From contig CAXXFL010000005.1 of the NCBI GenBank assembly GCA_963674965.2, positions 544,001 through 608,000 of the forward strand: a DNA stretch of 64,000 nucleotides. The letters run 5' to 3'. The DNA comes from a bacterium. GTDB taxonomy: Bacteria > RBG-13-61-14 > DATKZS01. Made by a program: the position numbers. The stretch's first letter is position 1, and each line of letters begins with the position of its first letter. Shown piece by piece: positions 30,701-33,700 of this stretch.

Positions 30701-33700
30701 CGCCGGCCCGGTAGGTGTCGATGCGCAGGTCGTCCGGGTCGATATCGATCTCGATGTCCTCCTCCACCTCGGGCAGCACGAAGACCGCCGCGAAGCTGGT
30801 ATGACGCCTTTTGTTGGCGTCGTAGGGCGAGATGCGCACGAGCCGATGCACTCCCTTCTCCGCCTTGAGGTACCCGTAGGCGTATGTCCCCCTCACGGAA
30901 AAGGTCACGCTCTTGATCCCGGCCTCGTCGCCCGGTTGCTCGTCGATCAGGCTGACCTCGAAGTCCATGCGCTCGCAATAGCGAAGGTACATGCGGGAGA
31001 GCATCTCGGCCCAGTCCTGGGCCTCCGTGCCCCCGGCCCCCGCGTTGATGGAAACGTAACAGTCGCCCTCGTCGTGCTCGCCGGACAAGAGCTGCTCGAG
31101 CTTGATCTTGGAAAGGCGCTCGGCCAGCTCGCCGATGGCCTGGCCCGCCTCGGCGGCCGAGGCCTCGTCCTCCTCCTCGTCCGCCAGGTCGAGAAGCACC
31201 TCGGCGTCCTCGACGTCCGACTCGATCTTGCGCCAGACCTCGAGCCTTTCCTCGATCCTCTTCTTGTCCCGGTTGACCTTGGCCGCCTCTTGCTGGTCGT
31301 TCCAGAAGTCGGGGGCCTCCATCTTTTTCGTCAATCCCTCGAGGGCGCGCTCCATGCCGGGCAGGTCAAACATACCCCCTGAGACGCTCGTGTTCCTCTT
31401 TTACCCCGTTAAGCCTGTCTCGATAATCGTTAAACATCCGGTCCTCCAAGCGGCCTGGGCGGCCGCGTTTTGCTTTTCCCATTCGACTTGGACCTCGCCT
31501 GGAAGCCCAAGGTTAATCAGATATTATAGCCCGAAACTCTCCGCCTCGATAGCCGCGGGAAAAAATTTCGAGAGAATTTAATTTAGGGGGTTACTCTCGC
31601 GGGCTAAAGGTGTAAAATGGTTAGCCGTTCGGGGAGGAAAGGGAAAGCCTCGATGAAGCGAATATATTTCAGTCTGGTCCTGCTTCTTTTCGCCGCGGCC
31701 GGGGGAGCGGCCCGGGCGGGGGGAATGCACGACGCCGCGGGCAAGGGCGACGCGGCCCTTTTGTCCCATTTGCTCGACGAGTATCCCGAGCTCGTCGAGG
31801 CAAAGAACTCGGACGGCGACCGCCCCCTCCACGCGGCGGTAATGAACGGGCGGCAAAAGACGGCCGAGCTTCTTGTGGGCAGGGGCGCGGACGTAAACGC
31901 CGAGGGCCGGTATGGGCTATCGGCCGTGAAGCTGGCCATCGCCCTGGGCCGCTTCGATCTCGCCGACACCCTTCTGACGACGGAGGCCCGGATAGGGGCG
32001 GTCGAGGCCGCGGCCCTCGGCCGTCTCGACTGGCTGGAGAAGATGTTTGGAGAGAACCCTTTGTTGGCGTCGGTGGGCAACGACTTCGGCGAGACGCCCC
32101 TCCACCACGCGGCCCTTCGCGGGCGCAAGGAGGCGGTGGACTTTCTTTTAAAGCAGGGCGCCGACGTGAACGCCTCGACCACCGGCGCTCCGGGTTACTC
32201 GAGTCGCTCGGGCCGCGAGACGCCCCTCCACTGGGCGGCGAGGGGAGGAAGCGAGGAGGTGACGGTGGCCCTCATCGAGTGGGGGACCTCGATCGACAAG
32301 TTAAACGACGCCGGCCGGACGCCTCTTTTCCTGGCGGCCGAGGGAGGCCACGCCAAAATAGTTTGGTATCTTATCGAGGCGGGGGCCGACCCCACGAGGG
32401 TCGACTCGAGTGGCTCGACGCCCCTGCACCTGGCCTCGAACGCGGGAGTGGCCGAGATACTCCTGCGCCGTGAAATCGACGTTGACGCCAGGGACGGCGA
32501 GGGCATGACCGCCCTGACCAGGGCCGTCGGCTCGGAGCGCTTTCGGCTTTCCACTCTCCTTAAGCATCACGGCGCCCGGACCAGCATATGGGACGAGGCC
32601 GCCCTGGGCATGATCAACGAGATCGAAAAAAGGATTTCCCTCAACTCCGCCCTGGCCAACGCCCGCGACAAGTCGGGCTATACGCCTCTTCACTACGCGG
32701 CCCGGGAAGGACGGGCCAAGCTGGCGGAATATCTTATCGGCGCGGGCGCGGACCCCAACGCCTCGACGAATAAGGACGGCTCTCGTCCGCTCCATCTCGC
32801 GGTCCGCCGCGACCACGTGGCGGTGGTTCGGACGCTTCTCAACAAGGGCGCCGACGTTAACGCCAAGGACGGGGAAGGGTCCTCGGCGCTTCACTACGCG
32901 GCCATGCTCGGGGACCCGGACGCGGTTTCCCTTCTCTTGAAAAGGGGCGCCGACCCTCAGGCCAAGGACGGCCAGGGCCGGACGGCCGCCCACTACGCCG
33001 CCGCTCGAGACAAGCTGATCCTGGCCGCGATCCTGGACAAGGGGGGCAAGCCCGGCGGCAAGGACCAAAGCGGGGCCGAGCCCATCCATTACGCCGCCGC
33101 CCGCGGAAACGCCGAGACCGTCAAGCTGCTCCTGGCCAGGGGGGCCGATATTAACGCTCGCGACGGGAACGGTCTCACCCCCTTCGCCGGGTACGTTGAC
33201 TACAATGGATGCCCGGACCTGGCCTTTTACCTCCTCGACTCCGGGGCGGACCTCGAGGCCAAGGACGGCGAGGGCCGGACCCCGCTCCATATCAAGGCCT
33301 TCAAGGGCGACGCGGCCTCGGTGAAGTTCCTTCTTAAAAGAGGGGCCCGGATCGACGCCAAGGATAAAAAGGGCTTCACGCCCCTTCACCACGCCTGCTT
33401 CCAGGGAAGATACGACTGTGCCCTTCTCCTCCTCAACGAGGGGGCCAGGATCGACGCCCGGAGCATCTCCGGCGCCACTCCCCTTTTCAGCGCCGCCTGG
33501 ACGGGAAAGCGGGGACTGGCCAGGCTGCTCATCAAAAGAGGGGCCGACCCCGACGCCAGGAACGAGGCCGGCGCGAGCGCCCTTTCCGCGGCCGCCTGGA
33601 CCGGCCAACTTCGGACCCTCCAGTTCCTGATCGAGGCTGGGGCCGACCTGTCCCGGCCCGATTATCGGGGCTCGACGCCGCTTCACGCCGTTGCCCTTCC

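Follow-up and report, generated by a model that had tools for sequence, protein, structure and literature searches.

Programmed +1 frameshifting in bacteria has its textbook example in prfB, the gene for release factor 2 (RF2). Since the tRNA there has to re-pair at UUU, the CUU-U of the site is regarded as all but invariant. In the E. coli-type arrangement, SD-NNN-CUU-UGA-C, a Shine-Dalgarno (SD) sequence lies 3 nt upstream of the shift codon, a short ORF1 closes with UGA-C, and the RF2 body is read in the +1 frame after landing on UUU. Other codons have reportedly been engineered into the RF2 site (work of Weiss, 1987, and of Curran, 1993, the latter with 32 variants), GUU probably among them. 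According to passages of PMC5009743, CUU_U outperformed the other sites by a wide margin in a test of 32, and the natural re-pairing is a first-position G:U wobble. Passages of PMC3711429 give the motif as YTT_TRA_C, and UUU-UGA sites occur naturally, with 21 TTTT genomes, "exceptions included", in passages of PMC12421855 and a "small minority" in those of PMC5009743. Outside bacteria, yeast Ty3 (GCG_A.GU_U) and OAZ1 (GCG_U.GA_C, likewise with UGA-C) undergo a natural +1 shift with poor +1 pairing (PMC12661321, passages).

Here, we describe a prfB site with a valine codon, GUU, at the shift position, found in a 64,000-nucleotide stretch of a bacterial genome (GenBank assembly GCA_963674965.2; hereafter the window). 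The only prfB copy in the window lies on the minus strand; its leader of 23 codons closes with AGG GGG TAT GTT TGA C, and the RF2 body lies in the +1 frame, as the preliminary description of the locus had it. Window coordinates of the elements are as follows.

31443..31447, minus strand: leader SD, GGAGG, separated from the ATG by 5 nt; pairing with the 16S 3' end of this genome, -9.3 kcal/mol
31366..31437, minus strand: prfB ORF1 in the 0 frame, ATG at 31437, 23 sense codons (MFNDYRDRLNGVKEEHERLRGYV) plus TGA; RF2 N-terminal segment
31375..31380, minus strand: SD-like stimulator within ORF1, AGGGGG, with 3 nt between it and the shift codon; pairing with the anti-SD of this genome, -10.3 kcal/mol
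31372..31374, minus strand: spacer codon TAT (Tyr22), by sequence
31369..31371, minus strand: shift codon GTT (Val23) where CTT is canonical; shares two bases with the +1-frame TTT at 31370-31368
31371..31373, minus strand: +1-frame ATG formed by TAT plus G, lying 1 nt past the SD and apt to mislead gene callers
31365..31368, minus strand: stop TGA (31368-31366), read by RF2, followed by C (31365)
30294..31370, minus strand: prfB ORF2 in the +1 frame, RF2 body, 358 open codons from TTT at 31370; GGQ at 30695-30687, SPY at 30830-30822

An RF2 gene with an ORF1 and a +1-frame body, UGA-C, an SD 3 nt upstream and a UUU landing codon belongs with the prfB programmed +1 frameshifts. Its codon, GTT (Val), falls outside CUU and UUU, and the site is therefore classed as a variant and not as a canonical CUU-U (or YUU-U) site. 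Unlike the E. coli site, it would place a C36-U mismatch where E. coli has a G-U wobble, and it carries an in-frame ATG behind the SD. The UUU-UGA variant, too, has arisen naturally by a change at the first position and retains SD, spacing and UGA; however, UUU re-pairs perfectly, whereas GUU or AUU has no position-1 pair on UUU. The yeast sites are eukaryotic, with no SD and no P-site re-pairing, whereas with GUU two of the three pairs persist in the +1 frame. Engineered E. coli P-site variants place other codons in the same cassette but are laboratory constructs, mostly with UAG in passages of PMC5009743, whereas the codon described here is natural, under selection and fixed in whole clades.

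ORF2 matches the TIGR00020 prfB profile with 525.8 bits (4.7e-158; cut-off 370) and has an intact GGQ. In a profile search of the genome, TIGR00020 was matched at prfB level at this locus alone, so prfB is single-copy, and since TGA closes 1626 of 3849 long ORFs (a crude ORF count), RF2 must be made. Within the 6.5-Mb genome there is a single occurrence of GGRGGNNNGTTTGAC. The genome's own 16S end, GATCACCTCCTTT, is complementary to the AGGGGG stimulator. The stop-reading tripeptide of this RF2 is SPY (window 30822-30830, minus strand), where SPF is presumably usual. AGGGGG is also the internal SD consensus in section 5 of PMC12421855.

Read through the shift, the fused product is 380 aa long, and its residues 3-127 align without gaps to residues 5-129 of E. 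coli RF2 (1gqe), with V23 falling on the Leu that precedes Asp; the start of the TIGR00020 match moves from model position 15 back to 3. Among the four GTT genomes of the family, leader pN/pS is 0.37 in frame and 0.89 and 1.59 off frame (4 sequences x 18 codons, synonymous sites near-saturated), while the 18 codons after the shift are less constrained than the leader, at 0.63. Leader values are 0.34-0.56 in three other GTT clades and 0.30-0.57 in CTT clades. In 5/5 family genomes, the SD of the leader ATG stands at a normal spacing. As judged from these substitution ratios, the family leader is under protein-level selection, in a data set that is small and partly saturated. The earlier statement that the leader peptide stays conserved in the GTT genomes holds for its length, its own SD and its RF2-like residues.

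The preliminary description had placed GTT-TGA-C in 4 of the 13 genomes of the class, all within the family (4 of 5), and CTT in the remaining 9; these counts were reproduced. Its view of a variant common to the family is correct, but the spread was understated. GTDB species were scanned for SD-NNN-RTT-TRA at a distance of 313-343 nt ahead of a conserved RF2 motif that had matched 30/30 test loci. The scan gave at least 119 prfB sites, with 110 GTT and 9 ATT among the matches listed; 118 of these 119 are in the right frame relation and 2 are repeats of family members. GTT sites among the matches listed come from six phyla: Pseudomonadota, Cloacimonadota, Spirochaetota, Campylobacterota, Bacillota and the window's own group. 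The ATT-TGA (Ile) loci among them (L038, L046, L062, L071, L110, L114, L143, L085 and L066) belong to the WOR-3/TA06 group (7), Omnitrophota (1) and one alphaproteobacterium, and C follows the stop in 2/9. A hand count on a quick RF2 tree of 144 rows, built without L057 and L016, puts GTT in about 10-13 lineages and ATT in 3, the number being soft because of long branches. In L057, the frame breaks a second time in an A-run, about 35 codons past its GTT site, probably through an assembly indel. GUU has thus recurred in many lineages and AUU is a further variant, and the earlier wording of CUU as the universal shift codon cannot stand, UUU having been known already.

Groups around a carrier were also read without codon bias, taking the 30 best-scoring loci in each. 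GTT-TGA-C was found in 30/30 loci of a marine gammaproteobacterial order (that of genome G042; best 30 of 31 matched, 37 genomes). Here, TTA-GTT-TGA stands in 25 of the 30 (L284-L313), so that the landing codon is immediately preceded by a +1-frame TAG, and TTG in the other 5. An alphaproteobacterial order (that of G041) has 18 GTT and 12 CTT (best 30 of 39 matched, 41 genomes), and a Cloacimonadota class (that of G043) has 5 GTT, 22 CTT, 2 with an open frame and 1 unparsed (best 30 of 40 matched, 41 genomes). Ca. Pantoea edessiphila (L115, genome G045) carries TAT-GTT-TGA-T, and its five genus relatives (L314-L318) all have TTT-TGA, two of them with a weakened SD (AGG AGT). A search for A/G/T-first codons in 388 genomes outside the window's class returned 13 pattern matches (4 TTT, 1 GTT, 1 CTT and 7 chance or in-frame), so that the true non-C-first shift codons there are TTT (4) and GTT (1) only; the GTT variant is rare overall. 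Within the family, the CTT member (G003) groups with a GTT member in the best tree (81/86), but a GTT clade is compatible with the data (p-AU 0.15), so that a single GTT origin followed by reversion in G003 and an early branch that kept CTT fit the data alike. A metagenome scan for further GTT family members found none and returned one locus, with the same sequence as the CTT member.

Several readings other than a frameshift at a valine codon were weighed. That the G is an error, or that GUU is read as Leu or edited so that the site is canonical in effect, we consider hardly credible. The window does come from an assembly, and the sequencing runs that contain the site are all from one sample, possibly the source sample, in which contigs from two runs have no differing letter at the site; but GTT is common to four species of the family and recurs in more than 100 other genomes. 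In 948 paralogue pairs of the window's genome, GTT faces V (0.38), I (0.18) and L (0.09), with A also among its partners, as GTC does, whereas CTT faces L at 0.58, and in the carriers' own RF2 the GTT codons stand mostly on Val columns. Reassignment of GUU is rejected on both counts, and editing is without support. A different route to RF2 would be termination-reinitiation, or direct initiation, in which ribosomes terminating at UGA would start anew from the overlapping ATG (ATG-TT-TGA, an 8-nt overlap), yielding a 359-aa RF2 that lacks the first 22 residues, with the leader acting as a coupling uORF. The preliminary description had raised this rival, and the +1-frame ATG it named, one base behind the SD run, is indeed present at 31373-31371. 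That ATG is in frame with the RF2 body in 4/4 family GTT genomes, all of which have TAT before GTT; the ORF from it alone exceeds the TIGR00020 cut-off; and T-ending spacers look depleted before GTT, a hint that NTG starts are not inert. However, TAT is also the commonest spacer at CTT sites (27/55), so a C-to-G change makes the ATG automatically, and a 12-row alphaproteobacterial clade has a variable spacer (TAT, TAC, TTT or TTC). The SD duplex, moreover, ends at the base adjoining the ATG. An SD that abuts the ATG is too close for initiation. The leader also retains its length, its own SD and RF2-like residues under purifying selection.

The stronger argument against reinitiation comes from sites outside the family. 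Directly before TTT, the 129 distinct GTT sites among the matches listed have ATG in 8, TTG in 7, GTG in 4 and no start codon in 110. In 43 of these 110, there is none within the next 60 codons either, and in the rest the first lies a median of 33 codons on. In 29 of the 129, a +1-frame TAG stands directly before TTT, so that the frame can change only at the GTT codon. Nor was a coupled start found that overlaps the stop, is conserved across carriers and has a usable SD spacing, as the ATG is present in 8/129 and the SD abuts it. Reinitiation as a general explanation fails and is excluded for most carriers; within the family it is disfavoured and, as the main route, improbable, although the overlapping ATG may give a minor product there.

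Taken together, the cassette and its recurrence make it very likely that these genes use the standard RF2 autoregulatory +1 frameshift, with tRNA-Val slipping from GUU to UUU and partly re-pairing, which is also the slip that the preliminary description had proposed. On this reading, a ribosome would start at the leader ATG and read 23 codons, bringing GUU into the P site and the weak stop UGA-C into the A site. With RF2 plentiful, termination at UGA would follow; with RF2 scarce, the internal SD would pair with the 16S tail and peptidyl-tRNA-Val would move by one base, from GUU to UUU. The window's genome has tRNA-Val with anticodons GAC, CAC and TAC, and the slipping tRNA most likely has GAC. 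On UUU, it would keep the second-position A35-U and third-position G34-U pairs and have a C36-U mismatch at the first position, where tRNA-Leu at CUU would make a G-U wobble. Asp-tRNA would then read GAC, giving the 380-aa RF2 with Val23-Asp24. The sequence elements, the frames, the selection on the leader and the recurrence at sites with no start codon are observed, and from them we infer the shift itself, the tRNA used and the feedback.

The same protein would result if no re-pairing took place, with tRNA-Val staying on GUU or moving unpaired, the U of UGA being skipped and Asp-tRNA binding out of frame, a mechanism put forward for yeast GCG sites. In favour of this, C-U does not count as wobble pairing at the first codon position, and work in yeast supports two mechanisms of +1 shifting (PMC12661321, passages). 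The variant codons seen are nevertheless GTT, ATT and TTT, the A/G/T-first search gave only TTT and GTT, and all keep TT at positions 2-3. Such constancy is what re-pairing to UUU would lead one to expect, and it speaks for slippage with partial re-pairing and against out-of-frame binding of the yeast GCG type. The SD stimulator is also kept at canonical spacing, and an upstream stimulator in yeast aided only sites capable of re-pairing (PMC12661321, passages), and we hold a shift of this kind to be very improbable. Slippage by tRNA-Val is probably less efficient than at CUU, given the first-position G:U wobble of the natural site, the rank of CUU_U among 32 sites and the 1000-fold drop cited for tRNAs that mispair in the +1 frame (PMC2377451, passages). 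About 7% frameshifting is given for Flavobacterium in passages of PMC10798248, and since this is enough there, a low efficiency can suffice.

Compensating features were sought in tRNA-Val, tRNA-Leu, RF3 and SD strength, and none was found in the carriers examined. Loss of tRNA-Leu(GAG) is rejected as a driver, this tRNA being kept in 3/4 carriers (the window's genome G000, G042 and Ca. Pantoea edessiphila G045). The Cloacimonadota carrier G043 (group loci L188-L206) has Leu(AAG) and no Leu(GAG) among 43 tRNAs, and its tRNA-Val(GAC) has C32-C33. In the window's genome, tRNA-Val(GAC) (G000:C1:10452-10527) has G37, as in 4/4 family GTT genomes, with A37 in the family's CTT genome. However, G37 is also present in 5/6 CTT genomes of the same order and in 23/77 matches outside the class, and other carriers have A37, so a special G37 is neither needed nor sufficient. 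A tRNA-Val C33 occurs in 4/5 Cloacimonadia GTT carriers and in none of the CTT genomes read (one clade), but in the alphaproteobacterial order of G041 it occurs in both CTT and GTT genomes and does not track GTT.

The RF3 gene, prfC, was detected in 1/19 GTT/ATT carriers vs 18/111 background genomes, several of the genomes being incomplete, in 0/6 CTT relatives at scores over the cut-off, and in none of the 13 genomes of the window's class. Absence of RF3 is rejected as a condition, as G523 has both GTT and RF3 and CTT relatives are likewise without prfC. The window's genome also has a selenocysteine tRNA. A stronger SD is rejected as compensation (family GTT -9.5 to -10.4 vs CTT -9.5 kcal/mol). 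Spacers end in T in 12/13 unrelated CTT genomes vs 4/13 hand-assigned GTT lineages (Fisher p 0.004, the lineages not being strictly independent), and in 9/9 ATT sites among the matches listed. When the spacer ends in T, the G that follows completes an NTG start behind a strong SD, and avoidance of an unregulated start is thus a plausible reason for the spacer shift at GTT sites. More broadly, GUU and AUU could form a second class of RF2 switch, one that selection has favoured repeatedly and in which the first codon position need not pair, a lower RF2 level is set, true re-pairing is perhaps lacking and the spacer has changed to avoid an NTG start behind the SD, while in TAT-GTT lineages the AUG could add an unregulated route to a shorter RF2; we regard this composite picture as doubtful.

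A full-text literature search, limited to the passages it returns, gave no report of a natural GUU RF2 site, though older site studies could still mention GUU, and passages of PMC2790909, PMC8710568 and bioRxiv 10.1101/2025.10.02.679949 contain none. As had been noted before, section 5 of PMC12421855 names only CTTT and TTTT; in the main-text passages, "guu" and "valine" have 0 occurrences and the passage found for "gtt" is a primer. Table S1 of that survey, in the part available, has no shift-codon column and enters Ca. Pantoea edessiphila as frameshift/TGA, and a GTT site may lie unremarked in its data set, where the assembly is perhaps other than L115.

The GUU sites are a real and recurrent exception to a near-invariant signal in a well-known system, with the shift itself deduced from sequence. 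Their recurrence suggests that ribosomes can make the RF2 shift with a worse-matching tRNA than thought. Occurring in nature, fixed in whole orders and acquired on many occasions, GUU-U and AUU-U sites are test cases for how far P-site pairing is needed and for why CUU is retained elsewhere. For annotation, the ATG made by TAT-GTT means that gene callers can report a shortened, frameshift-free RF2, and since YTT-TRA motif searches miss GTT and ATT genes, the loss of frameshifting in uncultured bacteria may have been overcounted.

Around the locus, a class I-type lysyl-tRNA synthetase follows prfB after 25 nt (window 28691-30268, minus strand); it scores 583 bits against PRK00750, below the cut-off of 648, and lies above the cut-off of lysS_arch. 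We take the prfB-lysS order to resemble that of E. coli, which presumably has the class II enzyme. Divergent from prfB lies an 811-aa ankyrin-repeat ORF (window 31617-34052, plus strand), whose family matches are all below cut-off.
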